DNA from: Cetorhinus maximus
Taxonomy: Eukaryota
Direction: 5' to 3'
Assembly (NCBI RefSeq): GCF_964194155.1
Contig: NC_135901.1
Span: 32,550,001 to 32,614,000 of the forward strand
Length of the DNA: 64,000 nt
Of the stretch, positions 1,169 through 49,722 are shown piece after piece (position 1 is the stretch's first letter; each line of letters starts with the position of its first letter). A program made the translations under genes and the position numbers. The notes under the pieces were generated by a model, which was not told where the DNA came from, made no database searches, and saw only the letters and a list, made by a program, of their open reading frames with translations.

Positions 1169-3685
1169 ATGCATGTACCACCGACAGACCTGCTGTTTGC
1201 CATTTATTATCCCGTCATTGCGGTAATCGGGGTTCCAGGTAACGTATTGTAGTTAGATATTATCGCATGAATGGTGGGTTAGGTATATTATTTCTCTTAT
1301 TTTATCAGTGGCGCATCTCCACGATTTGTATTCCCTTTCTACGGTTGAAAGTGACATATTGCCACCTTAAACGGTATAATTTCTCCCATTTAACTGCAAA
1401 ATGTCTGCGTTTTTTGCAGGATCACTTACTTTTTCACTTTAACTATGCTGATTCTCAATTTTAACGGTGACATTTCTTCCAGCAGTTCAAATAATTTCTC
1501 GGAATTAATGGTGAATATTCTCACCTTTACCAGTGTCATGCCTTCCACTTACCACCAGTGTTTAATCGTTTATGTTGTCTCCCCTTCAATTGCATTCTGT
1601 CTGTTCATGACGTGTAGCATTATTTTGTTTTAAGTTTATATTTTCTCCCATTTACCGCCACAATCTCCCGTTGGAAATGCAGTTCTGCTCTTGGCAATAC
1701 TGCGTTGGGAGGATTACAGCAAAAGTATTATGTTGTAAGTATTGGTTCTATTGTGGCATTGTCACAGTGACTGTGATGTACGCTCACCTGGGTTTCACAG
1801 CATGCTGTGTCATTAGCACGGTGAATGAACCTGAAGTATCACATGGTTAATCCTGTGTAAATGTAGACCTTTTGTGTTGCTGGTGCTATTGCTGTGTGTG
1901 AATTATGACGTTGTCATTCCAGGGTAAGTGTAGAACTATTATATTAACCTCGCTTTTACTGTGGATGAACTACCGTGATGCTATCACTTTGTATGCCTAG
2001 ATATTTAGTGTTATTCACTATGACAGAGACGGATTGATTCACAAAAGTAATTCATTTTGTAAATAGCTTGAAACGTTCAGTAATTCGCCATTGAATTTAA
2101 TGAAAGAGTTCACTGAAGAGTCATAAGAAGGCACTGCGTTTTTGACAAATATGTGAGGAATGCAGGGGTGGCCCTTTGGCGAATGATTGTTATTCGCCCC
2201 TAATTCACAAAGCACTGGGTTATCGCCCCCAGGGCTCGAACTGTCTTCCACCCTTTCCTCCACTCTTTTAGTTCTGTTCTGCATATTCATGGCGGCCCCG
2301 TCACCGGTGGCGCCCTTTGCATCTAATATTCAAAGATTACAGTTCAAATGTCCACTGCAGGGTAAAATTTAGTTATTTATCCCAACAATGCAGAGCAGCA
2401 CTCTCTCCGATTGAGAGCTTAAAATGTGCCAGTTCAGCTAATTGTCACGTTAAGTGATCGGACTTACCACTCTGCCCTCATAAACATTTCCACCGAAAAT
2501 TCACAGAAAGGCTAACTGCCCGTTCCCACTTCCATGATTGAAGGTATTTCTGATTAACTTTGAACTTATGATTACTTTGAACCATACAGAAAGATCTCTC
2601 TTTAGCAAAAGAAATAGTTTACAATGTGGGATCGTGTCTCACATGTTTCAATTTCACGCATAAACTTGCAGAAGCATTATTGTGTTGGGAGTCAGAGAAT
2701 TAACTTTCGTGTTCTCATGCTGTCTCATGCAAACGCTCTCCCTCTCTTTCTCTCTCTTCTGACCTCTGTTACAGCTAACCTGGCAGTGATTGTGATACTG
2801 TCACGAAGATGTTGTGGTCTCTCCAGATGTATCACTTACTATGCGGTTTCCATGGCGGCGACTGATCTCCTGGCCATTATCACCAGCGTGATATTAAGTC
2901 GGATTGCTGGTATTTATTTACCAAACAGTTTCTTGTCAATCACGCCAATATGTAGTGTCCATTCTGCCTTAATCTCTGCGGCCATTGACAGTTCTGCCTG
3001 GTTAACAGTCGCTTTCACCTTTGACCGATTTGTGGCCATTTGTTGCCAGAAACTGAAAATAAAATACTGCACAGAGAAGACAGCGTCTTGGATGATAGCG
3101 ATTTTATGCACACTGAGTTGTCTAAAAAGTATCTTCCAGTATTTTATATTTGAACCAATGTACGTAATTAATGATGTACCCTGGTTCTGTGTCATAAAAT
3201 CCGCCTTTTATACATCACCTGCATGGAACATCTATGATTGGCTTCGTTCCATTTCACTGCCCTGTGCCCCTTTATTTCTGATTTTATTGTTCAATGCTCT
3301 GACCGTCAGACACATTCTCGCAGCTAATAGAGCCCGCAGGAGGCTCAAGGCCCATAACATGGGGGAGAATCAGAGAGACCCAGAGATGGAGAAGCGGAGA
3401 AAGTCCATTGTTTTACTCTTTGCCATCTCCGGCAGTTTCATCCTGCTATATTCGTTATTTTTTGCAACCATCCTCTATGTCCGCATTGCAAAAGTTCGTT
3501 ATTTTGCAATTGCTGATATCAGTGAATCATCATTTATCCTGGAGGAAAGCGGATATATGCTTCAGTTTTTAAGTTCCTGTATCAATCCATTTATTTATGC
3601 TGGGACCCAGAGTAAATTCAGGGAGGAGTTCAAGAATGGAGTGAAATCTCCCCTGAGTTTATTTGTTAAATTGTTCAAATTTTGA
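1169..3685 (+). CDS. Intact two-exon GPR139/GPR142-like class A orphan GPCR, copy A; exon 1 1169-1238, exon 2 2775-3685, 326 aa
   Basis: Exon 1 reads MHVPPTDLLFAIYYPVIAVIGVP then G|GTAAC donor; a pyrimidine tract and TTACAG acceptor end at 2774. The phase-1 join gives GVPANLAVIVILS (compare GPR139 GLPANILTVIILS). 70+911 nt = 327 codons. Motifs: TM2 MAATDLL, TM3 TFDRFVAIC, ECL2 PWFC, TM7 SSCINPFIY. An in-frame upstream ATG at 1145 is a possible alternative start. Confidence 0.92.
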
Positions 3686-4117
3686 AAGGGCGGGAGTGGA
3701 ACATGAATTATGCATCAAAATCCAACATTTTCTCCACTTCTCTATGTCTCGTATGGCCTCCCTTCCAAGTTGCACTCGCTTTCAGACCCTTACCAGGTGT
3801 ATGTATACAAAACTGTAAAAGGACCGATTCGGAATCCTGTAACCAGAGACCAGCGAATCTCAGGTTCAGATTGATCAAAGAGCCAAAGGGTCATCGCTAA
3901 GCTGGCAGATGTAACAGATCCAGGGAAAGGCTGGCAATGCTCCAAGAGGCAATGCGGACTCATGCACGATCTGTTATTTACCCTTCCTAAATTGGAAATT
4001 TAGCTGGCAAGGCCAGCACTCTTTGAGCATCCGCAACTGTGCTTCTCAAGCCAGAGTCCTGGGTGAAAACATAGCTTGGTGATACCTCCAGCTGCCATGC
4101 TGCCTTCCAGTCAGTGC

Positions 4118-4123
4118 AATAAA
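4118..4123 (+). terminator. Candidate polyadenylation signal of GPCR copy A
   Basis: AATAAA about 430 nt after the stop codon, followed by T-rich sequence; also present in copy B (~50155). Confidence 0.35.
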
Positions 4124-6720
4124 ATGTCCTGCAATTTCACTTTTAGACTTGTTAAATGTTTAAGATGTGTCTTATTTAAATATTGGTTAAAAATCCATTT
4201 GATTCTTAAATGAAGCAGCATTGACCTGAAGGCTGGCACAGGAGCCTTCCCTGGTAAAGTACAGGAGCATGTCTCTGGAGGCACATCTATTGTCCGTTTC
4301 GCCCTGATATTTTTGTAACTTAGGTAGATTGTGCAAGTTTTCAGAGAATTAAATAGGAAAATATTAAAAAATGCCTGCTCCGTGTCTTGACTCTCGTGCT
4401 TTGCAAGATATTAATAAACTGTGTCATTTGAGAATTGTGCTAGCCGTTTATTGCTGTCTGTTCATGGCTCTTGTATATCTGTCCTCACTTTAAGCAAATG
4501 AGCCACCAACCACTTGCAGCTGCATGGGAACCCAGAAATTGCTTAACCTCTGATCAGGCAATAAAACAAATAATAACAGTTACAGTCATTCAGCATCTGA
4601 TCTTAATATTGATAATCACATGGCGTTTGAATGTTCAAATTAACTTTTCTGTGGTTTTGATTTACGGCCTATTAAACCAAAAATCGTAAGGTATTCATGA
4701 GTTCATCTTTTCTTACCTGATGGATGGTTAACTGTCTCGGTCATTATTTCTCGGTACATGGTTGTTAAGTAATTATGAATCAGATTTGATTATGGAAATG
4801 ACTTAGGCGGCGCCAGTAAAGCCAGTCCTGCCAGCTCATCTCTTGTGAATTATGCCATCTCCATCCTTCCTACTTCCTGACAATGCTGGAATTTTATCAA
4901 ATTTGGGAGCCTCCTCTTTTCCAAAAGGATAAATTATCAGCAGAGTTTGTCTCAGCTTGTCCGTCTGTCTTTCTGGCTAAATTATATAGAATATACATAG
5001 GTAGGTAGATATATGTCGATTTGTGTGCATGTACATAAATAATGTTGAATGCATATGTCTGTCTTTGTGTACGTGTGTGTCTGTGTGTTTGCCTGTGCAG
5101 CTCATATGTTCGAAATGTTTCTCTCTGGGTCCCGCTTCTCGCTTACAGATGCTGTCTGTAGGTAACTGAGCGCTATTACGCCCCCGTCATCATTTGGTTG
5201 TTCGTATCTCTGTCAATAGCGTTAGAGCTTTAGAAACAATCTCCCCTCAGGCAGGGAATAATGTTGCTCATTGCAGTGTATGTTGTAACATTCGAAAAGC
5301 TCATTGCAGTTCTCATTAATCCGTAGGAAATAAAAACAAATAACTGCGTTACCTTTATTAATCAGAGACGGTTACAGGCCTGATTCTCAATGCCAGTCTG
5401 TGGTCGAGCGCAGGCTGAGTGATTTTTTAAATTTATTCTTCCCTGGGATATGGGAGCCGCTGTCAAGGCCAGCATGTGTTGCCCATCCCTAATTGCTCTT
5501 GAAATGAGTGTGTTTGCCTGTGGGGCACAGATGTTGGTCTTTTTTTCGAACTGGATCTCACATTCTCCCTTAGAGTCGCTGTGTGTGGGAAACTGAGAAA
5601 TATTAAGTACCTGCCTACATAGGGTCGTTAGTAATCTCTGTCTTTCACGTTAGAACTGAAGGTAAAGATCTGTCCTTGTAGGGAGTAATTTATGCTTTAT
5701 TTCAAACTTTTGTATAACTTCTTAAATCCCTCCTTGGATACGCAGAATGACAACCATATAAAAGCAAACAACAACTTTTAATCTTTCTCGCTCAGAGTCA
5801 ACATAAAGGCCTTTTCCTTGCTGCCAGTCTAGTGCAGAGCGCTGGACAAGTGTAATTTTAACTGACCAAATTTTAAAAATTCAATCTTTACATATACCAG
5901 ATGCACAGCAAGCTAAGAGGTAACTTGAAAAGAAATATTCCATGTTCATCTGTACTTAAGATGTTATTCCAACACCTGCTGTATCTGCCTTTTCCCTCTA
6001 ACTCGATCATCACATCACAACAGTGACGAAAGTTCGAAAGCAGTTAATTGGCTGGAATGATCTGTGCAACATCATGTGGTAGAGCAGGGTGCTGCACAAG
6101 TACAAGGCCTGTTTCCTGACAGGCAGAATTGTAACAAATTAAATCATCCACAAATTAACAGTTTCAAAGTAGGTATAGAAATATTGTGACATTGGTCAGC
6201 GCAGCACAAGGGCCACCTTGGCAGAAAACCTTTCTTCATTGTTTCTCTGAAAGAAACACAGAGACAGTACTTAGAAATGTCCAGGTCTGCAGATTCAGGC
6301 TTCCATGTTGACATTCCTAAATAAATAAGATGGCGACTGATGAACACTTTCATCTATATGAGCATCTGCTCACGGCTTGCATATAACTCTCAGCATGATT
6401 TAAACTAAAAAGTGAACTGGTTGCAACCAAGTTTCCCTCGATTCATAGCTTCACTACAGCACAGAATGAGGCTATTCAACACACAGTGGAATACAATGCA
6501 GTCAGTCTCTTTCTCCCACTCTATCCCGCAGCACTGGATAGAATAGTCCCCTGAATTGCTCTTTGCTTGGTGCCCTCAAAGTGCTGTTTGGGTTTATGGT
6601 TAGGGTTATGTTATTCTCCACCACCGGTTGTCCATCATAATTCTTCTTTTTGCACGCGCTATGTTTAAGTCTCTCACTAGCACATCCTTCTATCTGGTTT
6701 TAATCTTTTCTTTTCTCAGT

Positions 6721-8530
6721 ATCACAGAATCACAGAATCTGAACTGCACAGGAGGATGCCATTCGGCCCATCGTATCTGCACCATCGCTCCAAATAGGCA
6801 TTGTGACCCAGTGCCATTCCCCCCCTTTTCCCCGTGCCCTTGTTAACATTTTTCTCTTCAATTAATCATCTATTGCCTTCTTGAAGGCCTCGATTGAACC
6901 TGCCTCCACCACAATTCCAGGCAGTGCATTCCAGACCCGAACCTCTCGCTGTGTGATAACGTTGTCTTGATCTTGCATCCACATTTTCTTCTTCTGTAAA
7001 TCACTTTTAATCTGTGTCCCCTTATTCTCGACCCCTCGGCCAACGGGAACAATTTCTCCCCAACTGCGCCGTCCAGCCTCCTCATCATTTTGAAGATTTT
7101 CTTCTCTCCATGGTGAACAGCCCCAACCTCTCCAATCTATCCTCAAAGCTGAAGTGTCTCATCCCTGAAACCATCTCTTAAACCTCTCCTGCACTCTCTG
7201 AAATGAGTTCACATCTTTCCTATCATGTAGCACCCAGAAATGTACACAATAATCCATCTGAGGCCGAAAGAATGTCTTATATAAATTCAGAATAACCTCC
7301 CTGCTCTTGTACCCAATGCCCCCATTAATAAAGCCCAGGTCAGCAGATGTTTTATTAACTGTTCCCTCTACCTGTCCTGCCAACTTCGATGATCTTTGCA
7401 CATATACACGCATGTCTTTCTGCTGCTGCACCCCCTTCAAATTTTCACCCCTTATTTTAAATTGTCTGTCAATCTTCTTCCTACCAAAATGTATCATCTT
7501 TCACTTCTCCGCATTCAACTTCACCTGCCAACTATCTGCCCACTCCACTAACTTGTCAATGTTCTTTTGAAGTTCTACATCATCCTCCTCACAGTTTACA
7601 ATGATCCGAGGCTTCGTCTCATTCGCAAAATTTGAAGTTGTCCCTTGCAAACCAAGATCTACATTATTAATATATATCAGGATAAGCAAGGGTCCCAATA
7701 CTGACTCCTGGGATGCTCCACTTCAAACCCCCCTCCCACACAAAAAAGTACAAACTGACCATTGCTCTCTGTTTCCTATTTTTCAGCCAATTTTGTATCC
7801 ACATTGCTACTGTCCCTTTTATTCCATGAGAATTGCTTTTCTCACAAGTCTGTTGTCTGGCACTGTGTCAAATGCCTTTTGAAAGTCCATGTACACCACA
7901 TCAACAGCAACACTCTCATTGACCTTTTCTGTTGTCTCTTCAAAAAACTCCAGCAAGTTAGTTAAACACGATTTCCCCTTTAGAAATCGATGCTGGGTCT
8001 CCCTTATAAACCTATATTTGTCCATGTAACTATTAATTCTATACACGAATAATTGTTTCTAGAATATCGCTCACCACTGAAGTTAAACTGACTCGTCTGT
8101 AATTGATGGTATTATTGATACAACGTTTTTTGAAAATGTTTGCAATTCTCCAGTCCTCTGGCACCTCCCCTGAGTCCAAGGAAACTGAAAGATTATGACC
8201 AGTGCCCCTGAAATTTCTACTCTCACTTCCTTCAATACCCTTGGATGCATCTCATCCGATCTAGGTGCCTTGTCAACTTTAAGTACCGACGATCTATTCA
8301 ACACTTCCTCCTTATCAATTTTGAACCCTTCCATGACAGTGTTTCCTCGTCTGCCACCATGGCCTGGGTAGCATCTACCTCCTTGGTAAAGCCGGATGCA
8401 AAGTGTTCATTTAATATATCAGCAATAGCCCTTTCATCCATGTGTAAATTCCATTTTAAGTCCCTAATCGGCCCCCCTCCTTTTTCCACCCTTTCTCCTT
8501 CTTCTTGTTAACCCAGCATCCATCACTTTG
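6721..8530 (-). mobile_element. 5'-truncated degenerate CR1 LINE
   Basis: RT fragments KGKSCLTNLLEFFE, VDVVYMDFQKAFDTVP, SVLGPLLILIYINNVD, LYKTFFRPQMDYC; (ATTCTGTG)n 3' tail at 6721-6740. Confidence 0.92.
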
Positions 8531-9749
8531 TTCACCCCGTGTCCTCTCTCACTTTGCCACAGATATGAAAACAATGTCTTCTCGCCATTTTCTTCGATGT
8601 TTCCACAATGGTCACTGAACCACTCATGCACCGGCCCCTAATGTTTTCCTTTTTCAACACATCACACATGTATCTGAGCATTAGTCTTATTTCGAACCCA
8701 CCCCCTCCCTCCTCTTTATGTTGTCCATGTTTGTGCACCACATAACAAAGCCAATACCAAAACCGTCTGTTAGAATCTGCATGTCGTCCCCAAATGCCCA
8801 TTCACTTTCATTTTGAAATCATTGAAGGTCTTCGCCACCACCATCCTCGTGGGCAGGGAGGCGCCTTTGTCTGATTACCAGGGTGACAGGTTTTTCCTAC
8901 GTCATTCACGTCCCCAACGCACCCTCCACAATTCCGAACAAAGCCTGATGGCCAGTTTACCAGAAGGACATTTTTATTCAATTTGGTAAGCAATTCACAT
9001 TTGGTGCCGGGGTGCTGAAGGCGATTGGCTGAAGGAATCGTTGGCCTTTGCCCACGCAGTTTAGAATCCTGCTGATGTGGCCTTTATCATTTATGAATAT
9101 AAGTGGGTGAACGTAGGCCTTATTATCAGTCAATGTTTACTAATTCACTCGCCTTTCAACCGCTCCGGGATGTCTTTTATTTTTATTTCTATTTGCCTGA
9201 TGGCATCCATGAAATTTACATTTCTAAGTGGAACAAACATCAGCCAATTTCGTGACAATCTTTCTTTCTAGCTCTCTGTCTCTGTCAATCTCGGTGGTTC
9301 TATTTGTCTGATTCACACAATGTGTGTCAATATGTTCCAGTAAGCCAAAGGAGTAAACTCATTTTTACCAGCAGAATTTTTAATCGTTATGACTTTGTAG
9401 CACGAGCTAAAGATATTGCAGAGAATGATAACAGGGTAAAAAGATGCAAGAGGCGATTGTCTCTTCCTTAATGTACTGAAGTGTGGACTGTTTTTCGAAT
9501 AACTGCCCCTGTGCTAAAAATTGATGGTAGTTTAAATTCTAAATGGGCAATATTTAAACAGTTAAAGGCAGATGAGTGGTCACAAGTGAGTAAGGCAATG
9601 GGAATCTCGGTGGAGACATTATATGTATTAGGGAGGACCAGACTGATTCCTCCTTATGTTTGGAGTTATTTGCACTGATGTCATGAGTCAGTTCAAGAGA
9701 AAGAATCTAAAAGTTTCTTCGCGCCATTTCGCATTCATATGAGGTTACA

Positions 9750-10640
9750 GCAAGCGGGAAAGACTGAAAAGGTTGAGGCCCCCGAATACTGCAGACCGAA
9801 GGCTTGTGAATGTTGTCTTAGAATCTGCGGAGTCTCACAACAAGACCAGGCCTGGGATGCTCTGTGCAATGTTGGACTCCTTACATAACCTTCCTTCCTT
9901 TGAGGTAGTTCAGACCCAGTTCACCAGTTTGATTCCCCTGGAATGAGGGGATTGTCCTCTGAAGAGAGATTTATCAGAGCAGGCCTATATTCCCTGGACT
10001 ATACAGGAATAAAAGAGACAGAAGCAGGAGTGGACAATACACCCAGCCAAACCTGCTCCATTATTCAAATCCGATCATGAATGATCTCAGGCTTCAACAC
10101 TATTTTCCCACCCACGGTCCATATCGATTGATTCTGCCTCACAGAAAAATGTCTCCAAGACAGATTAAAACAAAATCAACGATGGAGCATCCCTAACCCT
10201 CTCGGTTAGAGAATTACAGAGATTGACAATAAATTGAGTAAGCAATTGCTCCTCACCTCAGCCCTAAATAGCCGTGCCCTTATGCAGGGGCGGTGTCCTA
10301 TGTTCCAAATGTCGTGACCAGCGGGGTCAAGCTCTTAGTGTCCAACCTGTCAATCACATTTGGAATCTTGCGTGTCATTAATATCACGTTGGCGAATATG
10401 GATGAAATTTAATCAGCCTGTCATCACCGGACAACACTCTCATGCCAGTGATTCCTTCAGTGAAGCTTCGCTGTAGGGCCTCCCATGAAAGCATATCCTT
10501 CCTTAACCATGGTGATCAGAAATTTACACGGTATCACAGCTGTGGCCTATAGCCCTGGAAAACTGGAAACACAATTATTTATTCCTGTGCTCCAGTTCCC
10601 TTGAAACAAAGACTGACATGCCATTTGATTCCTCATTTCC
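9750..10640. mobile_element. Decayed CR1 3' fragments in opposite orientations (+ ~9750-10000; - ~10010-10640); duplicate at ~55780-56660
   Basis: Resembles the 3' portions of the CR1 copies at 42800-43300 and 34750-35010. Confidence 0.6.
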
Positions 10641-11679
10641 TGCTGTTGTTTTTCTTTTTTGGAGGGCGTCGGGGGGTGGGGCGGGAGAGCGGGGGCTGAG
10701 CGGGGGACGGGGAATGGGGGAGGGGAGGAGGTGAGGAGGAACGTTTCAATACCGTGAGATGCTGTTTTTCACTGTGGTGCCAATCTGTGTGTTGAGCATC
10801 GCCTCCTGTGGGCCATGAGCCTCAATCTGGCAAAACATTCTCTGGTACAGAGGAAGGCAGTGGGTTGAAAATGCGCCGCAACCGCTGTCTTCTGGGTGAT
10901 CTGGGCCATCGTCTCTGGATCATGGGGCATCGGACTGAACACAGTCAAAATCAACATCTTTGGAATGAGAGGAAGAGGAACCCGTGAATGCTGATCTGAA
11001 CCGATTCAGAGTCTGAACCTTCCGTGAGGATAGAGCAATGGGAAACAGTGAGGGTAGAATTGAACCCAGCGAGAATCAGCACCATCAGGGAGCAGAGGGA
11101 GAGGACCAGTCATTGTAAAACTCAGGGAAATTAGAGTCAGGATACTCAGGAGAGGAGGGGGAGTGGATCAAGTGAGTGAAGAGCTGAACCGAGCCAGAGA
11201 CAGCAACTTGAAATGAGCCAAAGTTCACATCCAGCCTCTAATTGTAACTGAAGTGTATTGGCTTGGCTTCATTTTTGTGATATGCTTGTTTTAGGATTGG
11301 GATTGTGGCAGAACAGGGAATGGATCTGGGATTGAAGAAAACGATGTTAAGGATAACGCGATAGGTTTGGATTTCAGTTTGAATAGGGGCTGTGGATTTT
11401 CTGACATGGGGATCTGAAGCTATGGGAGAAGCAGAGAAGAAATAAGATGTACTAGAATCTACAGTTGTGGATTTGAAAACTAGTGCCTGCCTGGAAAGTG
11501 GCGACTTGTGTAAAATCCATTTCTAGGACATTAGAAGGGAGAATTTGGTGATCCAGATCTCAAACCAAACATCACATCAATATCTGACAGAGCACCTTGA
11601 TCCATTGGGTCTTGCATATCATCGGCCATTGAATGCGAAAGGGGAATGCGCAACAGGAGAGAGACAAACATGTGCTCTG

Positions 11680-11803
11680 TGTGTGGGCTACAGTTATTCA
11701 CAATATATATTAATGACATAGATGAGAGAAGTGAATGTACTATCGCCAAGTTTGTGGATGACACAAAAAAAGGTGGGAACTTAAAAGGTGGCGGTGACAC
11801 AAT
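11680..11803 (+). mobile_element. Short CR1 RT fragment abutting the Harbinger left end
   Basis: QLFTIYINDIDERSECTIAKFVDDTKKGG (FADD region). Confidence 0.8.
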
Positions 11804-12071
11804 GGGGGAATTTTCCAGAATTGCAGTAAGGTCGGTAGCGGGCGGGTAAAATGGAGGCCCATCCGCCGATGAAACTGGCGGGTTTTCACGCCGTATTGTC
11901 CCGATCCCGCCTCATTATTTATTCACTGCCACGAGGTACGCCATTTGCATGGCGGGCTCTCATTTGCCTGCCAGGTATCACCCCATTATTGCATCACACG
12001 GGCAGTCATCTTTAAAAGGCCACCGCCAGCAAAGCGCTCATCGCCACCAGCTCACCACCGCTGCCTGGGAG

Positions 12072-13755
12072 ATGGCCAGCAATGGAAAAAAGACTGCAGC
12101 ACCCACCCCCCCACCCCTGCTTGAACGACGGTTCCGTCGAGCGAATGCTGGATGCCGTGGAGACCCGCCAGGATGTGCTCTCCCCCCGCTCTGGCCGCAA
12201 GATGGGTAGCAAAGTCACCAACCCAGCTTGAGAGGTGGTAGCAGCCATGGTCAATACAAACCCTGCAGAAGAGGGCTGCCACCCAGTGCCACCCATTCTG
12301 CCAGGATAACTCACTCCATTCATCACTTCCAACTCACAAACTCACAAACCAATCACACATCCACAGGGCCCTAACTCACTGCCAGTGCAAGGGACATCAC
12401 TATTCACTCTTTCAAAAACACTGCCATTGTCCTCAGCCCATCCATGGAACCACTCACCACCCCCATAGGCCAGGCATACTTAACATCTGACCCAGCAGGT
12501 GTCCTGATGCACTCTCCCCATCTCTATCCATGCAGGGAAAACTGGGTCACAGCAGCAGGGAAAGATTGGGGACAGGTGGAGGGATGCTGGAGATCAAAGT
12601 TCTGACAGGATTCGAAAACAAAGCCATCCAGCTCCCCGGCGATGACCAGGGCCCGCCCTGTGCTGATGGTAAGGCCGGCATTGCTCTACCAAGTGAGGAT
12701 CCGGCAGTACAACATCCATCAGTCATCCATGCAGTGAGTTCTGTCTCGTGATTCACAGGCCACTGCCAGGCACTAATTATCTCTCTTTGCTTTCGCAGAC
12801 ACATCTGCCAAACAGACAACAGAGTCCACGTCCCAGGGCCTCCGATCAAGCTCCGAAGAAACCTCTGGGGCGGAATCTGGAGAGCCACCACAGAGCTCGC
12901 CAACATCCTACACCACTGCAGAGATACACACCTCAGTGGGACCGAACTTTAGAGTATCCTCGGGGTCACAATCTGGTGAGTGCATCGCAATGTCTGCTCC
13001 ATGGTAGGCGGTGGCTGGGCCTTCCCAGTTCCCCCGCACTCAGATTATAGCAGGAGGACAGAAAATTTCTGAGTCCGAGACAGATGATGAGCCTCTGGAC
13101 TCGGTCGTGTCACAGTTGCTTGGGGTGCAAATGCAAGCTAGGGAATATCAGGAAGGGATGTTCACTGCACTCCTCAGATGGCAAGGCAAGATGGAGGAGT
13201 CTGTCCGTCTTCACGCTGAGGTGATAGCGACAACATTGCAATGCACCGGGGTGAACACTGGAAGGCTGGCGGCCGCCATGGAAACCTTGGTCCAGAACGT
13301 CACTCCTCCACTGTTGCGCAGGCTTAACTCCATCACTGACACCACACTTGGCCTTAAACAGTGTGCACGTGAGAGGGGTGCTGGGCAGCAGAAGCTCACT
13401 ACATCTACCCCTTCTGCTCACGGAGTCGGCCAGGGGCCCTCGGGCACCCATCGGGAGGAGGGTCAGCAGGTGTACACTCCGGGGCCATGCAACCAGATGA
13501 CACTGGGAGTGACCGGCCCATCGGAATCCTAACTGCCTGTGGCCTATGCAGTTCCAACTCCACAGGCCGAGGAGGGTGGCACTGCCACAAAGCAGGAGCC
13601 TGAAAGCAGGCTGGGGCCCTCCAAGTCTAGGCCCTGCAGAGGACGCCCGCCAAAGTCCTCAGACAGGACGTCACAGTCAACAGGCTGCCTCCACATCTAC
13701 TGTGCATGTCTGGGGAGCACCAAGACGTGGCAGCAGGGTTAAGAAAGTTAGGTAA
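12072..13755 (+). pseudogene. Harbinger Myb/SANT-like (trihelix) DNA-binding gene, spliced and disrupted
   Basis: MASNGKKTAAP..ERMLDAVETRQDVLSPRSGRK..PA*EVVAAMVN; after an acceptor at ~12535, KLGHSSRERLGTGGG; GTGAGT donor at ~12734 and TTTCGCAG acceptor at ~12798; basic C-terminus RRGSRVKKVR; AATAAA at ~13816. Confidence 0.8.
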
Positions 13756-14283
13756 AAATAGTTGCACAGCCTGGAAACGGCTGTTGATTACTTGTACATA
13801 CTGTTCACTATTGTCAATAAACTCCTAAGATTGTCTCCCTGCCTATGGCTCCTTGTTCTGGCGAGCAGTGTTCCTGCCACTCAGATGTGAAATCTTTCTG
13901 CACAAGATAAAAGGCAGGTGTCCCAGTCCAGGGCCTCTTCCATGTTCTCTGTGCAGCCATGAGACCAAAGTCATGGTCCAGCCTCACACTCACTAGAAAT
14001 ATTACTGATGCCTGCACCTGGTCATTGCTGGCCATTGCTGCCAGAATGTAGTGGGCAGGCGCACAGAGTTCTCTCATACTCTCTGTATGCACTCAGCACA
14101 TTTAATGTGGGTTTGGCCCCCATCATACCAGCATCTGTGACCAGTGATTCTGTGTGCCTGCTCCTCAAGGGCTGAGGAGCTGAAGGCGGACACAACATCA
14201 GATGCATCTAAAGTTTCATGGCTGCATCTTTCAGATGGTCCTGATCACAGAGCGCAAGCAAGTTGCCCTTGGCCAGACAGGAG

Positions 14284-15455
14284 TCAGACATTCTCAGAGG
14301 CTATGTGAAGATCTATGGAGTGTCCCCACTGCATGTCGTCATCATCCTCCACAAATCGGGCAGCTATGAGTGTCTCCCCAGCGCGCCTGCCTCGTCTGGC
14401 CATAGCGAGAGCCTCAATCTCGTCAACGTCAACACCGAGGACCGCCTTATCCTCATCCCCATTGGCGTCCTCCTCACAGGAGGAGACAGGCAGCTCCTCC
14501 ATCTCTTCCTCAGCCAGCTCGTCTCCCCATTGCAGCGCCAGGTTGAAAAGTATGCAGCAGATGAAGATTATATGTGACACCCGCTGTGGATTGTACTGCA
14601 GGGCTCCACCAGGCACCAGGCTCCGGAACCGCATATTTAGCATCCCAATGGTCTGCTCCACCAAGTTGCGAGCTGCTGCATGAGCTTCATTATAGTGTCA
14701 CTCTGCTGCAGTCTGAGGCCCCCGCACGGATGTCATCAGCCACGGCCTCGTCCCCAAGGAGCTAACCCTGCAATCTCAGTGGAACCTGGAAAACTGCAGG
14801 GATCTGCGAGCGACTCAGGATATAGGTGTCGTGCACACTCCCTGGATACCGTGTGCACACCTGCAGGATGCATTTCTAGTGATCGCATACCAGCTGCACG
14901 TTCAGTTGCACCCTTGTGGTTGATGAAGTCTGCCGAGTGTAGCAATGGAGACCAAAGTACGAATCCAATGGCCCTTGCATCCTGGCTGTCCCGGTCCAGG
15001 GTGAAATGCATAAATTTGCGCACCATGGAGAAGATGGCATCCGTGACCTTTTGGATTTTTTGTGGGTGGTGGATTGTGAAATCCCACAAAGGTCACCTGT
15101 GCAGCCCTGAAATGAACCACTGGCTTTGAAATTGAGCACCGGGATCACTTTCACAGCCACTGGCAGCGGATGCCCTCCATCTCCCCTTGGCGCCAAGTCC
15201 TGTGAGCCACCAGGTTCCTAAACATGCGCAGTCGTCGGCGACATTTGCCCTGAGTCATCTGCAGGGACGGCAGGCAGTGTCTATAGACCCTGGGTGTCGC
15301 TAGGCGCCGACCAGCCACGGCTCCCTGTCGCTCTGTGCGGGAGCCCATGCTGCCCCTTCTTCATTAGTTTGCTGCTCGTGCCTTTGCATGAGCAGGTGCC
15401 TCAGTCCCAAGTTCCTGTAGGACAACAGGTATACAGCCAGGTCACCAAGATCCAT
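14284..15455 (-). pseudogene. Harbinger (HARBI1-like) DDE transposase, frameshifted
   Basis: [30 protein letters not shown]; FINHKG; VEQTIGMLNMRFRSL..GGALQYNPQRVSHIIFICCILFNLA followed by an acidic tail. Confidence 0.9.
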
Positions 15456-17645
15456 AATGCTGACGGGGCCCTCCTGCCGCATGAAAGAGAGAGAGACATG
15501 TTTATGATGGCTGTGCTTAGCACCTTTCCTGGCCCTGTGTGACTGGCCCTCAGCAATTACCGGAGAGGGCTGGTCACTCCTCGGATGCACAGAGATGAGT
15601 GCAGTGCATGGCTGTGATGTCAACCTGCGACATGGGGGACACTGGTCCAAACGGGGATGCTGAGAGTGCAAGGGGCAGTGGGCGCCTCCAGCAGCGACTG
15701 CTACATGGCCTGTGTTGTTGAGGAGATTGAACAACGTGTGCAGACCAACTGTTCCACGGCCCAATAAAGTGGTGGCGGACTCAATGTCTTTGCCAGGGGA
15801 AGTGGGGGACGGGGGTGTGGGGATAAGATATGGAGCGCTTGGTGGCCTTTCGGTGTCTCCGCGTTGATTCCAAGGGCGGACAGGCTGGAGCCCGATCCCA
15901 ATCATCACTGTGGTGCTTGCTCTGTCTTAGTTGCGGAGGGATGGGCAGTTTATACAGGTGTCCTTAATGAGTAGCCACTTCCCTCGCTTGCCCTGCTCCC
16001 AACTCTATCGCCTGTGGGAGTTATGCAGCACCAGGGTAGCACTTAACAACCCCAAAACAAACAACGGTCACCAACAAGGCTGGCCAACACTTGCCCCTGG
16101 ACACCCCTCACGCCTCACCAGTTGCCCCGAGGCCAGGCCTCAATTGCCTCCACCCCTCGGCGCCCCTGAGGCCTATCAACAACAGGGGAGCTGTGCAAAA
16201 CGATGCTATTCACTGACCTCAGTTCCCCCAAAGTGATGGCCGCCAAGTTCACATCCCCTGCGTGCTGTTGTGAAACACCTCACTCTGCTTTCCCGGCGAC
16301 GTGGGCGGGCGATTCGGCGGGGTTCCACGAGCCTGGCGGGATGGCCTTTCAATTATATGCTATTTTTTTACAATTAGCTCCCCGCCGACCATAGGCAGGA
16401 AACTCAGATGATAGCAACCTGCATTCACGCCACCATGACGCAAGCCGTCCGATAATTTCCACGAAGGCCACCTCTCACGTCCGCCACCAGCCAGCTCAGA
16501 ATATTCCTGCCATTGACTTTGGCTGCAGTAGAATGATTCCCAAAGACAATTCACTGACTGAGGTGATTCAGCCATTGAATAATTCCCGGTTGAACTTAAT
16601 GTATTTATTGAAGGAACTTTATTAGGAACAGAGACGATGACAGATCTCAAAACAATGTAAAAGTAGCCCTTTAAAGGTATATTGGCATGTACCCCTCACT
16701 CACAGGGCAAAGTGTTTCTCTCCTCAGTTTCTCTGCTTGAGCCCAGCTTTGCTCTTGCATGTCCTAAATTGAGGGCTGCTGAGTGTGGGACATCCTTCTG
16801 CTCCTAACACCCGGCAATGCCTAGGATTGTTCGAATATTCATTATTGTCTCCACATTGAGTGAAGGCCCAGAACTGGTGACACATTCTCGCCTTTCAGGT
16901 GCAAAGTTTTAATTTCAAGTAACCACCGTAGGATGTAGTTGATCCTTCGCCCCACCAGTGCAGTGCAGCACAGAGGAAGGGTCTGCATCTTCCTGCTCCA
17001 GAGTTTCAGATCGACACTGAGGATCCCAAGTGATTTTCAGTTGAAGGTCTCGGACTTTTTAGTGCATTCTGCGCAACTCTTCCTTCACCAAGCCAGAGAA
17101 ACGCTCATTGTCCTTTCACTTCCTTCTCTGAGTATATTTCTGAGCAGGCTGGCTGACTGCCGACTTTGCCATCAGCGAATAACTTTGCGGTCATTCGTTG
17201 AAAGGAGCCCATTTTATCCTGAGTGAGGAACTATTTTATTTTCGTCTCCACATCTATGGTTGGTTGTTTGTTTATTTACCCTCTTTGACATTTCTGTAAT
17301 TATTTGCTGATGTGTGATTTTCTTGCACATACGATGTTCCCGTGCTGGTTTCAATATGTCTTCAATTTCTTCATTTTCTCCTTTAGGTCTCACTGAAGCA
17401 CTTTACATTCCCATGTCATTGCCCTGTCTCATTTTTAATCGGGATGACTATTTTAAATGCCCGAATAATTGCCGCTACCATAACGGATATTTTACTTTTA
17501 AGGGTCACAGCTCAAAAGATTAAATTTCACACATAATTCTGTAACACGAATGCATATGTTTGTGTGTGAACCCCCAGCTTCTCTATTCTCGTTCCTTCTG
17601 AAACACAAGAAGCTCTCTGTTTCCATCTCTCCCTTTCCATTACAG

Positions 17646-35107: not shown

Positions 35108-38100
35108 AAATCCTTGGTATCTGCAGCAGTCATTCAAATTCAGTGCCCAGGTTTCAAAATATCCAGTTTTTACATTTAACCTTGAAACCCATCATAACGC
35201 ATCTGCAATCAGATCCTCATGCAGCAACTTGTCTTATCGGTCAATTAAGTGGTTGCATGAATTAACTCAACCTGTATAGCCTCGTACTTCTGTCTCGAAC
35301 TTTTACACGAACTTGAAAGGATTGTGGTCTGTAGAAAGAATAGTTTCTGTCGAATTGTTTGCCACACAGTTTTCAAAATGTTGCAATGCTAACACCAATC
35401 CCAACGCCTCCTTTTCAACCGTTGAATATCTTCTCTGTTGTGCATTCAACTTCCGTGAAAAATACTGTACAGGTCTTTCAGTTCCAGTGTCAACTTCGTG
35501 AAACAGGATGGCCCCAATATCAATATCTCTTGCATCAACGGCCAATTATAATTTCTTGGCGTAATTGAGTACTGCCAAAACTAATGTCCTAGCTACAACA
35601 GTGATCACAATATGAAGTGCCTTCTGACACTCCAGTGTCCATTCAAACTTTTTGCTCTTGTTCAATAGTTAAGTCAGTGGAGCAACCACATGGCTAACAT
35701 TTGGTACAAATTTTCAGTAAGACCCACTCATGTCCAGAAATCTCAAAACTTTTCTCTTTGTTGCAGGCACTGGGAAATCCACTTTCACATCTCTCAGAGC
35801 CACCTTACCATGTCCAATGTTATGGACTTGATACGTAACTTGCTCTTTTGTAAATTCACTTCCAGCCAAGTTTATTGACAAATTAGCTCCTTGTAATCGA
35901 ATAAATATTTTTTTCAGATGTAGTAAATGCTCATCCCACCTCTGGCTGAAAAGTATTAAGTCATCAATATAAACAGCACAATTGCTTGGACCTGCAACTA
36001 CTTTCTTTGTCAGTGTTTTCGAAAATGTCGCAGGTCCATTCTTCATACTAAATGGCATGACTTTAAACTGATATAGTCCATTTGGCGACACAAAAGCCAA
36101 TATCTCTTTTGCTGTGTTTGATATTGGGACTTGCCAACATTATTTTAGCAAGTCGAACTTTGTGAAAAATTTTGATTGTCCCACTTTCTCAACGTAATCC
36201 TCAAACCATGATATGGGAAACGAATCTGCTTTTGTCACAGAATTCACCTTTCAATAGTCCACACAGAGTATTTGTGATCTATCTGGTACAATAGGCGAAC
36301 TCAATGATGTTGCTTTAGAGCATGAAATCAATTTCCTTCTGCACTTGTGATAAACCTTCCGGCTTATACATAAGAATGTTGCCTTATTGAAGATGAAACT
36401 TCGACAGAGACATCATGGATAGCTAAATCTGTCCTCTCCAATTTGTCTCCACAAATGGTTTTGTGTGACTGCAATAGCTTTCACACATCACTTTGACACT
36501 TGTCTGGAATGTAACTCAATGTTACATTTAAGTTTTCAAATACACCCTCATTATCCAATCTGATGAGAGGAAAATACATTTCAGAATCCTGTCTTTCTAT
36601 CCCTTTCTTATTATCTAGCACTACTTATTAATCTATTTGATTCTCTTCCGTGTCAAACACTTTTTAAGCATATTCCCATGACACACACTCTGCTTCTTTC
36701 GTGTGTCTGGATTATTTATTAATTAATTTAGTCGCAAAATTTCTCTTCAGTCATGTAAGGCGCAATAAACTTTGCCTTTAATGAGTCACTCAGCACTGGT
36801 AACATTCCTTCCTGCAAAAAAATTCCGAGCTGTAGGCTTCCTGTCTGCTTTCACTCTTATCACTTGCTGTGATATCTTTCAATGTCCCCTAGCCAAGTCG
36901 CATGTTCTGTCTAACCTCTGTCTGAAGTTTGATACGTAATCCAGGAGAGCAGTTTCTGGATTTTGACCCACCAATTTCTCATCAATCAGTTTCAGTGGTC
37001 CCCTTACCTCAGGACCATGAACTAGTTCAAATGGACTAAAACAGTACAATGCATTAGGCGCACCTATAATAACAAACAACAAGAATTGAACTTCCCCATC
37101 CCAATCATGTGGATAATCGTGACGGTGCACTCTCATAATAGTTTTTATTGTTTGATGCCATCCTTACAAAGCTTCTTGTGACTCCGCTGATAAGCTGTTG
37201 AATGAAGCTATTTATCATCAAACTCTTCATTGCTTCCATAATCGGCTGTCACATAAAACTTGAACCCCATATCTTGTAAAAAGTAACTCTTACACAATCT
37301 TATTTGTAATTTTTCTTCAAGGTATGGCTTCAGAAAACCTGGTAGCCACATCCAAGATTGTTAGTAAGCACTGATTTGAAGTCTTCGACTTAGGGAGGGG
37401 TTGTACTCAATCAATCATGACCTGAGTAAACGTTTCTTCAATGTTCATATTGGGATTAAGGTGCTGTCTTAATCACCGCTTGTGGTTGCCCTATTGCCTG
37501 ACATGTGTTACATGTTCTGCAGTCTTTGACTATATCTCTGTGCAACTGGCCCAGTGAAATTTTTCTTTACCTTTGTTTGAGTCTTTCTAATTGTTAAATG
37601 CCCCCATTCAATTTAATGAGCAATCATGAGAAAGTCATTTCTATTCTCTAATGTAATAAAAATCTGATGTTCCTCCCTCCAGCTTCCATTTGCCGAGACA
37701 TGACCCGGTCTCCATTTCCTCATTAAAATATCACCCTGCAGGTAATAACATTCTGGGATACATTTTGCCTCTGTTTCTGTGTAAGCTGTCTGATATAACT
37801 GTTTTAATTGCAAATCCTTCTGAGGCAACTCAATTAACTACTTTGAGTTAAGCACTTCAGTTGATTTCTCCTCACCTGTGCCTTTATGAGCAATGTTTTC
37901 AAGTAGCGTGCCTGCTAATGCGATTTCAATACCTTCTTCCTGCCTTTGAACTGCCTGTCTTTCTTCTTTTTCTTGCTTCAACCTGTTTGCGTCTGATCCC
38001 ATTATCACACAAACTGGAAGCAATCCAGAATGCTCCTCTTGTAACAACTCTGTTGAAAACATTTCTATGGGCTGCTCAACTCCATAGGCATCACCCAGAT

Positions 38101-39407: not shown

Positions 39408-39408
39408 T

Positions 39409-39446
<38 letters not shown>
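39408..39446. repeat. Compound (CT)n(AT)n microsatellite within the decayed gag
   Basis: Seen directly. Confidence 0.9.
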
Positions 39447-43315: not shown

Positions 43316-43589
43316 TGACTTCAAGGCAATTCCTACCGAACTGTATACCACTGTGGCCGCAACCTGTGACGCCACCTGTGCTGGGTCTGTCCTGCTCATG
43401 TGGGCGTCTGGGAAATTATATGTAAGATATGATTCAGGGAGAACGGCTCTGCTTGACTGGTCTGTGAGGTAACTCTCTCAATGTTGGAATCAATAGGGTG
43501 GACTTTACAGGACCATCCGGTGCCTCCATCGATGCTGGTTGTGTCTGCCCGGGATTCTTCCTTTTTTGATACTTTGTAGCTGTTGCGCA

Positions 43590-43850
43590 GGTCACTTCAG
43601 AGAGCATTTTAAGAGTCAACTACATTGTTGTGAGTCTGGCCACATGTAATTCAGACTGGATCGTGTAAGGACGGCAGGCTTCCTTCCTTAAATTGAACCA
43701 GATGCGTTTTTTTTTAACGGCAGCCATCCTCATTGTGCTTTTTGTTCAAGATTTTAAGAATTCAAAAATTCAAGAATTTAAACTGCACGATTCGGATTTG
43801 CACCCGGGTCCCTGTAGAACTAGTCCAGCAACAATACCACTACTACACCT
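43590..43850 (-). mobile_element. Probable decayed SINE
   Basis: CACATGTAA..CAGAC..GTAAGGACGGCAG..TTCCTTCC..GAACCAGATG core, and a reverse-complemented tRNA-like head (GGTGTAGTAGTGGTATTG..GGGTGCAAATCC). Confidence 0.5.
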
Positions 43851-43854
43851 CCTC

Positions 43855-45040: not shown

Positions 45041-45059
45041 GAGGACATCTAAATCATCA

Positions 45060-45960: not shown

Positions 45961-47206
45961 AGTAAAGGCCCTGTGCAAACTTAATCAAACCGTGGTCTTA
46001 TAGGCCATGCAGCCATTGACTGGAGACTTCGTGAGCTTGTGCGTTAGAGGCTCAATGTCAAAGCAGAAAAGAGCTGATGTGGTCTAACTGAATTAAGGAT
46101 CGAACATTCTGGAACCACTCTGCAGGTCCAGCAGCACATGAATAACAGACACTGACAGGCCGGCTGAGATCATTCAGCATTTCATGTACATTTGGATGAA
46201 ACATTATCTCAGCGAAGTCGCCCAGGCCGTTAAGAGATTGGTTGTGTTGAGCTGGACCTGTCCCCGTTGAAATCAATCGGGTTGAATCGGATCTTGTCAA
46301 CTCTGAGAGTGTTTGCTGAATTGAAGCACATTGTGAGGACCCTGTCAACTCTGAATGTAACCATACTGAATGGGAGCTGACCACACCGAACTGAACCTTC
46401 CAGAAACCGACCTGCCCCGAGCTGGGATTGATAAGGTCCAAAGTGAACGGAAGCGCGTCAATCTGAACCTAAACACATAGATTGTAATTGGTCTCTGCTG
46501 GGCCGATGGGCTGAATTGACAGATGTTGAATAGGACATGGCGAAATCAAATGTACTGTGTAAAACTGGACAAATTCACACTGATCGTAACTGCGATGTAC
46601 TGGACCCGTTTATTGTCAACTGGGCAGATGCACAATGGATATGATAATAATGACTGGGACAATCCTGCACTGATTGTAACCCTGAAGAAGCGAGACTTGC
46701 ACTCCGAATGTAACCATATTTAACTGGAGTTGTCCAAAACAAACACACAGGTAGATGGGTCAAAGTGTGTTTACAATCTGAGAGAGAGTTGGGTCCGCGT
46801 GGCCCCTGATCAGTAAACACACTGACTGAACAACGATCAGCAGCAAGAACTTGGTTTGTGTTTTCGTCGGACAATTTGCCTTTCTCAGTGAGGTCTGAAT
46901 GAGCAGCTGTGTCCTGTCCTGACACCAATATCCAGCTAATTATAGTTTTCATAAAGAACGATAACTGTGATAATTCTGTCGTCTGGGCGTTTCACATTTG
47001 GACGATATCAGAACTCAACAAAAACATTGTTTCCCATCAAAACAAAGAAACATCAAGCGGACAGCAGCTGCACTGATTTGTTTGTTACAATAAGTGAAAA
47101 TAATATAAACAAAAAACTGTCTAATTGTTTCCCTGGAGCCTCACATCCTGTATAAATGTTGCACTTTTCAGTTTAATGCACAATGCGCTCAGACCTTCTG
47201 ATAGAA

Positions 47207-49722
47207 ATGCATGTACCACCGACAGACCTGCTGTTTGCCATTTATTATCCCGTCATTGCGGTAATCGGGGTTCCAGGTAACGTATTGTAGTTAGATATTA
47301 TCGCGTGAATGGTGGGTTAGGTATACTATTTCTCTTATTTTATCAGTGGCGCATCTCCACGATTCGTATTCCCTTTCTACGGTTGAAAATGACATATTGC
47401 CCCCTTTAACGGTATAATTTCTCAAATTTAACTGCAAAATGTCCGCGTTTTTTGCAGGATCACTTACTTTTTCACTTTAACTATGCTGATTCTCAATTTT
47501 AACGGTGACATTTCTTCCAGCAGTTCAAATAATTTCTCGGAATTAATGGTGAATATTCTCACCTTTACCAGTGTCATGCCTTCCACTTACCACCAGTGTT
47601 TAGTCGTTTATATTGTCTCCCCGTCAATTGCATTCTGTCTGTTCATGACGTGTAGCATTATTTTGTTTTAAGTTTATGTTTTCTCCCATTTACCGCCACA
47701 ATCTCCCGTTGGAAATGCAGTTCTGCTCTTGGCAATACTGCGTTGGGAGGATTACAGCAAAAGTATTATGTTGTAAGTATTGGTTCTATTGTGGCATTGT
47801 CACAGTGACTGTGATGTACGCTCACTTGGATATCACAGCATGCTGTGTCATTAGCACGGTGAATGAACCTGAAGTATCACATGGTTAATCCTGTGTAAAT
47901 GTAGACCTTTTGTGTTGCTGGTGCTATTGCTGTGTGTGAATTATGACGTTGTCATTCCAGGGTAAGTGTAGAACTATTATATTAACCTCGCTTTTACTGT
48001 GGATGAACTACCGCGATGCTATCACTTTGTATGCCTAGATATTTAGTGTTATTCACTATGACAGAGACGGATTGATTCACACAAGTAACTCATTTTGTAA
48101 ATAGCTTGAAACGTTCAGTAATTCGCCATTGAATTTAATGAAAGCGTTCACTGAAGAGACATAAGAAGGCACTGCGTTTTTGACAAATATGTGAGGAATG
48201 CAAGGGTGGCGCTTTGGCGAATGATTGTTATTCGCCCCTAATTCACAAAGCACTGGGTTATCGCCCCCAGGGCTCGAACTCTCTTCCACCCTTTACTCCA
48301 CTCTTTAGTTCTGTTCTGCATATTGATGGAGGCCCCGTCACCGGTGGCGCCCTTTGCATGTAATATTCAAAGATTAGAGTTCAAATGTCGACTGCAGGGT
48401 AAAATTTGGTTATTTATCCCAACAATGCAGAGCAGCACTCTCTCCGATTGAGAGCTTAAAATGTGCCAATTCAGCTAATTGTCACGTTAAGTGATCGGAC
48501 TTACCACTCTGCCCTCATAAACATTTCCACCGAAAATTCACAGAAAGGCTAACTGCCCGTTCCCACTTCCATGATTGAAGGTATTTCTGATTAACTTTGA
48601 ACTTATGATTACATTGAACCATACGGAAAGATCTCTCTTTAGCATAGGAAATAATTTACAATGTAGGATCTTGTCTCACATGTTTAAATTTCGCGCATAA
48701 ACTTGCAGAAGCATTATTGTGTTGGGAGTCAGAGAATTAACTTTTGTGTTCTCATGCTGTCTCATGCAAACGCTCTCCCTCTCTTTCTCTCTCTTCTGAC
48801 CTCTGTTACAGCTAACTTGGCAGTGATTGTGATACTGTCACGAAGATGTTGTGGTCTCTCCAAATGTATCACTTACTACGCGGTTTCCATGGCGGCGACT
48901 GATCTCCTGGCCATTATCACCAGCGTGATATTAGGTCGGATTGCTGGTATTTATTTACCAAGTAGTTTCTTGTCAATCACGCCAATATGTAGTGTCCATT
49001 CTGCCTTAATCTCTGCGGCCATTGACAGTTCTGCCTGGTTAATAGTCGCTTTCACCTTTGACCGATTTGTGGCCATTTGTTGCCAGAAACTGAAAATAAA
49101 ATACTGCACAGAGAAGACAGCGTCTTGGATGATAGCGATTTTATGCACACTGAGTTGTCTAAAAAGTATCTTCCAGTATTTTATATTTGAACCAATGTAC
49201 GTAATTAATGATGTACCCTGGTTCTGTGTCATAAAATCCGCCTTTTATACATCACCTGCATGGAACATCTATGATTGGCTTCGTTCCATTTCACTGCCCT
49301 GTGCCCCTTTATTTCTGATTTTATTGTTCAATGCTCTGACCGTCAGACACATTCTCGCAGCTAATAGAGCCCGCAGGAGGCTCAAGGCCCATAACATGGG
49401 GGAGAATCAGAGAGACCCAGAGATGGAGAAGCGGAGAAAGTCCATTGTTTTACTCTTTGCCATCTCTGGCAGTTTCATCCTGCTATATTCGTTATTTTTT
49501 GCAACCATCCTCTATGTCCGCATTGCAAAAGTTCGTTATTTTGCAATTGCTGATATCAGTGAATCATCATTTATCCTGGAGGAAAGCGGATATATGCTTC
49601 AGTTTTTAAGTTCCTGTATCAATCCATTTATTTATGCTGGGACCCAGAGTAAATTCAAGGAGGAGTTCAAGAATGGAGTGAAATCTCCCCTGAGTTTATT
49701 TGTTCAATTGTTCAAATTTTGA
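47207..49722 (+). CDS. Intact two-exon GPR139/GPR142-like GPCR, copy B; exon 1 47207-47276, exon 2 48812-49722
   Basis: Same splice sites and length as copy A. Exon 1 is identical; exon 2 differs by 6 aa (R>K, S>G, N>S, T>I, R>K, K>Q). Confidence 0.92.

Follow-up and report, generated by a model that had tools for sequence, protein, structure and literature searches.

A 64,000-nucleotide stretch of the Cetorhinus maximus genome (contig NC_135901.1, positions 32,550,001 to 32,614,000; hereafter the window) carries several related orphan receptor loci, and raises the question of what these receptors are and what they might detect. A preliminary description had read them as a birth-and-death cluster of atypical GPR139-like receptors with a possible chemosensory or immune role. 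Our analysis suggests that the genes belong to an ancient and extensive expansion, within the cartilaginous fishes, of a single GPR139-related orphan lineage (clade Z, see below) and most likely encode odorant receptors of olfactory sensory neurons, a reading to which we give somewhat more than even weight. The genes themselves constitute a maintained repertoire of class A receptors with short N-termini, two exons, diverse pockets and a shared Fox-homeodomain-O/E-TATA promoter.

The tandem unit and the genome-wide family

All five loci noticed previously, namely two intact genes (A1 and A2), two copies of one pseudogene (B1 and B2) and a third pseudogene (C) disrupted by a long interspersed element (LINE), are present where they had been described (Table 1). 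The phase-1 acceptor in transmembrane helix (TM) 1 said to be common to those with a visible exon 2 start was confirmed just before N1x50 in A1, A2, B1 and B2. Spliced across a GT-AG phase-1 intron, A1 yields a 326-amino-acid rhodopsin-class receptor with zero internal stops; exon 1 encodes a very short N-terminus and the start of TM1, and homologues begin likewise. Self-comparison revealed that positions 142-17912 recur at 46200-63985 with 95.9% identity, and A1/A2 and B1/B2 are therefore the same loci in successive copies of a repeated unit. The window thus comprises three loci (A, B and C) from a single unit, followed by the beginning of another. The five loci stand as a count, but rather than a local array of their own they are a small part of a genome-wide family.

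In the genome as a whole, 24 copies of A (98-100% protein identity) and 25 of B (96-100% DNA identity) are spaced 36-46 kb apart with two longer gaps, spanning ~1.2 Mb of contig C24. Exon 2 is open in all 24 A copies, which encode 18 distinct proteins with a ratio of nonsynonymous to synonymous polymorphism (pN/pS) of 0.36. The window gene was amplified recently, about 24-fold, within a 40-46 kb unit that carried two dead paralogues along, and either dosage selection or drift may account for this. An assembly artefact was rejected for the array on two grounds: the units diverge from one another by 1-7% per kb, and distinct sequences are seen in 23 of the 24 exon-2 copies. Within C24:31.82-32.98 Mb, unit lengths alternate mainly between ~40 and ~46 kb, and the two longer interruptions (136 and 141 kb) hold other family members, a pattern that suggests a higher-order repeat.

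Single-copy genes of this genome match shark proteins at 80-100%. A search of the genome with the A1 exon-2 protein matched 130 of 130 scored candidates (5,272 candidates in all), and a coelacanth query located further family loci on at least 10 more large contigs. An exact 26-base TM3 pattern occurs 1,131 times (552 + 579; control 0 + 0). The birth-and-death repertoire proposed earlier is therefore borne out on a far larger scale, and the family is anything but low-copy. Exon 2 was open in 35 of 57 loci (61%, Wilson interval 48-73%), leaving about 39% broken; these 57 were picked blind to state from the first 100 listed TM3-pattern matches, on contigs C6-C22 only. The pattern is carried by 31 of 54 intact loci from the protein search. 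As rough figures, these data would correspond to ~700 motif-matching genes with an open exon 2, rising to ~1,200 after correction for recall, estimates drawn from non-random samples of an assembly whose unplaced contigs may duplicate loci. By comparison, the cysteine-rich domain of class C receptors (V2Rs, mGluRs, CaSR and T1Rs) gave 39 matches among 102 candidates scored in the same genome, so that class C receptors number at most 39 against roughly 700-1,200 intact family genes.

In protein databases, 2,179 of 4,684 candidate proteins matched at E 1e-10 or better. Shark names are attached to 119 of the best 120 matches; skate, stingray and chimaera members occur among 20 name-checked sequences of 150 representatives (50% identity). 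Database labels read 'probable GPR139', 'capa receptor-like' or similar, and an ESM Atlas look-up returned only clusters with the same annotation label. One whale shark model (P0060) joins C2H2 zinc fingers to a family receptor and probably represents mis-joined neighbouring genes.

On two chromosome-scale contigs, family loci lie in mirror-image order (C16:0.97-4.9 Mb and C20:0.5-5.1 Mb, L118-L121). In two 10 kb pairs compared as a test, identity was 97.6% and 98.4%, with gaps. The pattern suggests a multi-megabase interchromosomal duplication, and real segmental duplicates would fit these stretches better than haplotigs.

Relationship to GPR139, ligand pocket and selection

When a family profile was compared with solved structures, human GPR139 ranked first (E 2.4e-13) and the TRH receptor next; for the single A1 protein, similarity to GPR139 was weak (E 1.3e-4) and GPR139 did not rank first. 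A true GPR139 is present once in the genome (C267, E 3e-158 against the PDB chain), as is a GPR142-like gene (C25); two further single-copy relatives are X (C8) and Y (C5). The phase-1 acceptor before N1x50 is common to all four and to the family. The relatedness to GPR139 suggested earlier is thus upheld by the best PDB profile match and a shared intron, and these sequence comparisons assign the family to a GPR139-related superfamily comprising GPR139, GPR142 and clades X, Y and Z. The clade X gene (L031, G000:C8:40642408-40643385) is 61% identical to a coelacanth protein and contains an in-frame stop in TM3, which may be a lineage-specific loss or an assembly error.

Phylogenetic analysis of 52 rows (26 of 78 having been dropped as near-duplicates or long branches), with a bootstrap not fully settled, gave support of 89/87 for the chondrichthyan family and 98/98 for its union with a single-copy amphibian and sturgeon gene, which together we term clade Z. 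Clades Z, X and Y grouped with support of 98/97, apart from GPR139/142. In a quick tree, clade Z was monophyletic with support of 98, with the salamander rows nested within the family at its unresolved base. Approximately unbiased (AU) tests rejected grouping of the family with GPR139 (p 6.7e-7) or with GPR139/142 (p 0.005). By these trees, the family is not an expanded GPR139 but is co-orthologous to the single-copy amphibian/sturgeon gene, a many-to-one rather than one-to-one relationship. A salamander query retrieved rows from 20 amphibian species, one row per species, plus one from sturgeon and four from chondrichthyans, in a word-limited search that does not prove absence of expansions in bony vertebrates. 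The label 'lineage-specific' accordingly applies to an expansion found in sharks, rays and chimaera, but is unsupported in any narrower sense, because the members span these groups and single-copy orthologues exist in amphibians and sturgeon.

The placement bears on a possible amplification of receptors that, like GPR139, would sense aromatic amino acids, or neuropeptides, in brain or endocrine cells. The profile match and common TM1 intron favour this possibility, but the true GPR139 and the GPR142-like gene exist as separate single genes and the AU tests reject the grouping. Statements from the literature here and below refer to the available parts of the cited texts. Activation of GPR139 by tryptophan and phenylalanine (Trp/Phe) requires F109, H187, W241 and N271 (PMC5430874). 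The GPR139 and GPR142-like proteins of the shark retain these residues. In the window protein F109, H187, W241, N271 and R244 are replaced by S, R, Y, Y and F, so that none of five is kept; across 51 family rows W6x48 is kept in 37 and the other pocket positions in at most 11. The ligand class formerly borrowed from GPR139 is unsupported, because the Trp/Phe activation residues are not kept, and with pocket residues variable across the family we consider GPR139-like sensing highly improbable.

Activation motifs, by contrast with the pocket, are nearly invariant in the 51 rows (D2x50 in 50, D-R-aromatic in 51, P5x50 in 48, N7x49 in 50 and Y7x53 in 51), and the proteins are predicted to be signalling-competent class A G-protein-coupled receptors (GPCRs). 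A complete NPxxY is present in the subfamily of the window genes, but in most members the usual TM6 and TM7 prolines are replaced (P6x50 present in 7 of 51 rows and P7x50 in 11), and the activation mechanics of the family may be atypical.

Among 55 non-redundant paralogues, mean entropy was 2.19 bits at 17 positions assigned to the pocket on the basis of the GPR139 paper, versus 1.67 bits at other outer TM sites (permutation p 0.004) and 0.86 bits in the inner TM region. Likelihood grids placed the optimal ratio of nonsynonymous to synonymous substitution rates (dN/dS) at ~0.5 for pocket plus outer loops and ~0.2 for inner TM. Gradients of this outer-inner kind are frequent among class A families and alone do not show chemosensation. 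Over 19 disjoint paralogue pairs dN/dS was 0.26, within a paralogue range of 0.2-0.3. The 'rapid divergence' of the preliminary description is unsupported, because paralogue dN/dS falls in this range and a ratio above 1 is reached in no partition. Purifying dN/dS implies instead that the genes are maintained as proteins, that pockets differ mainly between subfamilies and that there is no sign of an arms race. Overall, the family combines ongoing duplication and loss with purifying selection, conserved G-protein-side motifs and a variable outer face.

These values also speak to mutational bloat, the idea that in a genome rich in repeats and slow to evolve a few functional orphan receptors were swept into segmental duplications, leaving open copies that are mostly redundant or silent. 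A window unit copied 24-25 times with two pseudogenes and transposon relics, the broken fraction of sampled loci and the megabase-scale twin clusters on C16 and C20 would all be expected from such a process, and tandem duplication scales with genome size in elasmobranchs (bioRxiv 2025.06.08.657570). Bloat is nonetheless very unlikely in our estimation: dN/dS is 0.2-0.3 between subfamilies, every array copy is open with a low pN/pS, many deep subfamilies are common to sharks and rays, and promoter elements are conserved despite saturated synonymous sites, as described next.

Promoters and the proposed olfactory expression

Promoters were sought in 5-8 kb fetched upstream of exon 2 at 56 loci, with the TATA box 45-94 bases before the ATG as anchor. 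Exon 1 was found in 39, giving 40 promoters of 57 loci with the window included and 17 dropped. The observed order is a Forkhead-type element, then TAAT abutting an O/E-like (Ebf) site, 12-14 bases before TATA, and the homeodomain and O/E element is identical in the 24 array copies. The O/E core given in Table 1 of PMC3247239 occurs within one mismatch in 25 of 40 promoters (control 2.3%), the Fox element in 27 (1.1%), exact TATAAA in 27 (2.4%) and TAAT in 20 (8.5%). TAAT and O/E (up to two mismatches) coincide in 19 of 40 versus 1.5%, figures that count motif presence alone and hence predicted sites. The first 16 promoters served to set the interval searched; the 24 fetched afterwards contained O/E in 9, TAAT in 10, Fox in 16 and TATAAA in 14.

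Seventeen deep representatives included eight with O/E, against a shuffle mean of 0.3 and maximum of 3 over 300 shuffles. Their pairwise identity was 0.38 in the element versus 0.28 on either flank, and synonymous sites were saturated in the one deep pair measured. Genome-wide, the TAAT-O/E-TATA pattern has 79 matches (control 11), of which 71 lie on C24 or on unplaced family-bearing contigs; none of the eight others lies within 3 kb of a recognisable gene start, and three of them resemble one repeat. A second promoter pattern gave 22 genome matches versus 5 in the control. The clade X promoter, the sole readable negative control, has no O/E within one mismatch in 300 bp; a search of up to 10 kb found no exon 1 for GPR139, the GPR142-like gene or clade Y.

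In mouse, O/E, homeodomain and TATA sites are enriched in olfactory receptor (OR) promoters (PMC3247239; PMC5318403), and OR enhancers contain adjacent Lhx2/Ebf sites (PMC5608512) as well as Foxj2 sites (PMC3247239, PMC5318403, PMC5608512). The chemosensory-type reading offered earlier is supported, and the predicted promoter elements appear to add to it. We propose that an Lhx2/Emx-type homeodomain factor and Ebf would switch individual genes on in olfactory neurons, that one or a few family genes are probably expressed per cell, that each receptor would bind a different water-borne small molecule or peptide, and that signalling might proceed via the Go/TRPC2 (PLC-type) pathway of catshark olfactory neurons. 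Go/TRPC2 machinery marks all olfactory neurons in catshark, where these cells form an 'almost continuous' monolayer; the combined density of neurons labelled by the seven receptor probes that gave a signal is 12.6 per mm, and that for a putative V2R co-receptor is 5.9 per mm (PMC10116579). By our own reckoning from these counts, rather than that of the source, most catshark olfactory neurons would lack an assigned receptor, leaving room for receptors of another kind. The fuller proposition is that roughly a thousand GPR139-related genes form a fifth, independently evolved vertebrate olfactory receptor family, more than tenfold larger than all four known families together, with mammalian-type homeodomain/Ebf promoter logic and receptors for most shark olfactory neurons; we judge the chances of this to be evenly balanced.

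Several observations weigh against the olfactory assignment. Factors of the Ebf, Fox and E-box classes are also at work in the B-cell programme and in many other neurons. Only half of the promoters contain TAAT, and binomial p-values for the promoter motifs are overstated because the promoters are related by descent. The partition-level likelihood grids gave no sign of positive selection, and the pocket did not evolve faster than other outer TM sites among close pairs (p 0.34). TAAT-to-GG spacing is 13 in seven of nine measurable shark promoters versus 14 in the single readable mouse composite, and the mouse Lhx2/Ebf composite is spacing-sensitive (PMC5608512). Three shark V2R promoters (two independent) showed one homeodomain-like plus O/E site near -180 and otherwise weak matches. 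Published work attributes shark olfaction to V2Rs (PMC11979771, PMC10116579), and a catshark brain-plus-olfactory library had no GPCRs, V2Rs included, among its 50 most specific genes (PMC11979771). As a further positive control for the promoter, the OMP family was sought in the genome, and nothing was found. In the V2R cluster itself (L218-L223, G000:C20:89.52-89.61 Mb), two paralogues have a TATA box at -61.

The promoter motifs are relevant to a role as immune receptors of leukocytes (B-lineage or myeloid) that sense microbial peptides or metabolites under EBF1, Foxo and E2A. Ebf and Fox elements, together with an E-box in the promoter alignment of the C24 subfamily, match the B-cell factor set, and immune families likewise show birth-and-death evolution. 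We find this decidedly unlikely, since no partition showed positive selection, half of the promoters have a homeodomain site directly adjoining the O/E site, and the nearest human relative is GPR139 rather than a chemokine or formyl-peptide receptor.

Alternatively, the repertoire may be chemosensory outside the nose, in solitary chemosensory cells, taste buds, sensory cells of gill or gut, or placode-derived organs (lateral line, ampullae), which are also users of Ebf, Fox and homeodomain factors. Family size, selection and promoter data fit this explanation equally, and GPR142 is present in islets and gut. Catshark OR and V2R-like genes are expressed at such sites (PMC11979771), and GPR139 and GPR142 are nutrient-type sensors (PMC5430874). 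Adjacent homeodomain and O/E sites, however, are best known from the regulation of olfactory receptors. Furthermore, about 1,000 genes suits olfaction better than taste, and we regard a site outside the nose as unlikely. Odorant reception in olfactory sensory neurons thus stays our preferred reading of the family. Four read runs over the stretch are DNA, because the intron is covered evenly and the splice joint is absent, and they bear neither way on expression.

Table 1 Features of the window, in positions counted from its first base
Feature	Position	Strand	Observation
One complete tandem unit (~46 kb)	142-46199	+	neighbouring units 40-46 kb
Forkhead-type element, A1	1041-1048	+	same motif 45-95 bp before TATA in 27/40 paralogue promoters
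Homeodomain site (1083-1089) and O/E (Ebf) core (1092-1100), A1	1083-1100	+	match to consensus in Table 1 of PMC3247239
TATA box, A1	1113-1119	+	exact TATAAA in 27/40 promoters
Gene A1 exon 1	1169-1238	+	70 bases; 23 codons + 1 base; ATG, GT donor, frame open into exon 2
Gene A1 exon 2	2775-3685	+	TM1 to C-terminus, intact; Pfam 7tm_1 E 4e-20
Harbinger-type transposase remnant	14287-14697	-	DDE_Tnp_4 E 9e-10; recurs near 60.3-60.8 kb
Pseudogene B1	17646-~18518	+	exon 2 only; frameshifts and stops
Pseudogene C, intracellular loop (ICL) 2 to C-terminus	20965-21600	-	nhmmer E 4e-167; 7tm_1 match
LINE within pseudogene C	21601-24554	-	~2.95 kb; endonuclease domain E 1.7e-8 at 23578-24474
Pseudogene C TM3/ICL2 remnant	24555-24594	-	~40 bp; nhmmer E 1.6e-4 at the adjacent model position
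Homeodomain, O/E and TATA promoter of A2	47121-47157	+	identical to A1 element
Gene A2 exon 1	47207-47276	+	identical to A1 exon 1
Gene A2 exon 2	48812-49722	+	intact; 10/911 bases differ from A1 exon 2
Pseudogene B2	63719-64000	+	runs off window end

Receptor sequence continues on either side of the LINE in pseudogene C, whose upstream half is almost entirely lost, and the TM3/ICL2 remnant is also present in neighbouring tandem units; neither the TM1-TM3 part of C nor an exon 1 for B or C was found within the window. The Harbinger-type remnant sits in a GC-rich stretch and was co-amplified with the unit. Divergence between the two units peaks in the GC-rich part near 11-13 kb (6-7% versus 1-3%). 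A decayed retroelement leaves a reverse transcriptase remnant at 35717-36139 (RVT_1 E 5e-12). Nine other open reading frames of the window had no Pfam match, and a tRNA search of the window found none.

Comparison with known receptor systems

The sequences are public under automatic labels, and the expansion is apparently undescribed as a family. Term searches found no such expansion in the available texts of the catshark (PMC11979771), whale shark (PMC8455134) and skate (PMC10115646) genome papers or of the zebra shark (bioRxiv 2022.10.17.512540) and Squalomix (bioRxiv 2025.06.08.657570) preprints. Nor was a description found in the wider literature covered, a scope that ended short of subscription journals and of parts of the catshark, whale shark and bioRxiv 2025.06.08.657570 supplements. 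The largest V2R cluster reported in the Squalomix preprint has 65 genes (bioRxiv 2025.06.08.657570). The whale shark paper describes a relative paucity of GPCRs (PMC8455134), a claim that a family of about a thousand receptors contradicts whatever its function. Sharks and rays have large olfactory organs, yet only a few dozen olfactory receptors are reported (PMC10116579, PMC11979771). If the family is olfactory, this long-standing paradox would be removed and vertebrate odorant receptors would have a new origin, and the evolution of receptor choice under homeodomain/Ebf control could be tested independently.

GPR139 and GPR142 resemble the family in belonging to the class A orphan-peptide clade, in the identical phase-1 intron before N1x50 of the shark orthologues and in a short N-terminus. 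They differ in that the family is a sister lineage and a paralogue of neither gene, does not keep their pocket and has ~1,000 copies rather than one. Rinne et al. (2019) recognised three GPR139-related sets in coelacanth, gar and fishes, GPR210A, GPR210B and one unnamed (PMC6504862), matching in number the three lineages X, Y and Z of our tree. Their data set covers ray-finned and lobe-finned fishes and tetrapods; in its available text the word 'cartilaginous' is absent and no expansion is described (PMC6504862).

With the OR, TAAR, V1R/ORA and V2R/OlfC families, the shark genes share clustered birth-and-death evolution, many pseudogenes, purifying selection and a variable outer face, and with mouse ORs a homeodomain, O/E and TATA promoter. 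They are distinguished by GPR139/FMRFamide-type ancestry and one coding intron. The nematode srw chemoreceptors offer a further parallel, being a birth-and-death family derived from FMRFamide/myosuppressin-type receptors and proposed to sense environmental peptides (PMC2576165), and GPR139 has been linked to FMRFamide and MIP receptors (PMC12208981). The likeness thus lies in birth-and-death expansion from the receptor group to which GPR139 is linked, whereas the shark expansion is independent and took place in a vertebrate, and the window protein has no Srw Pfam match.

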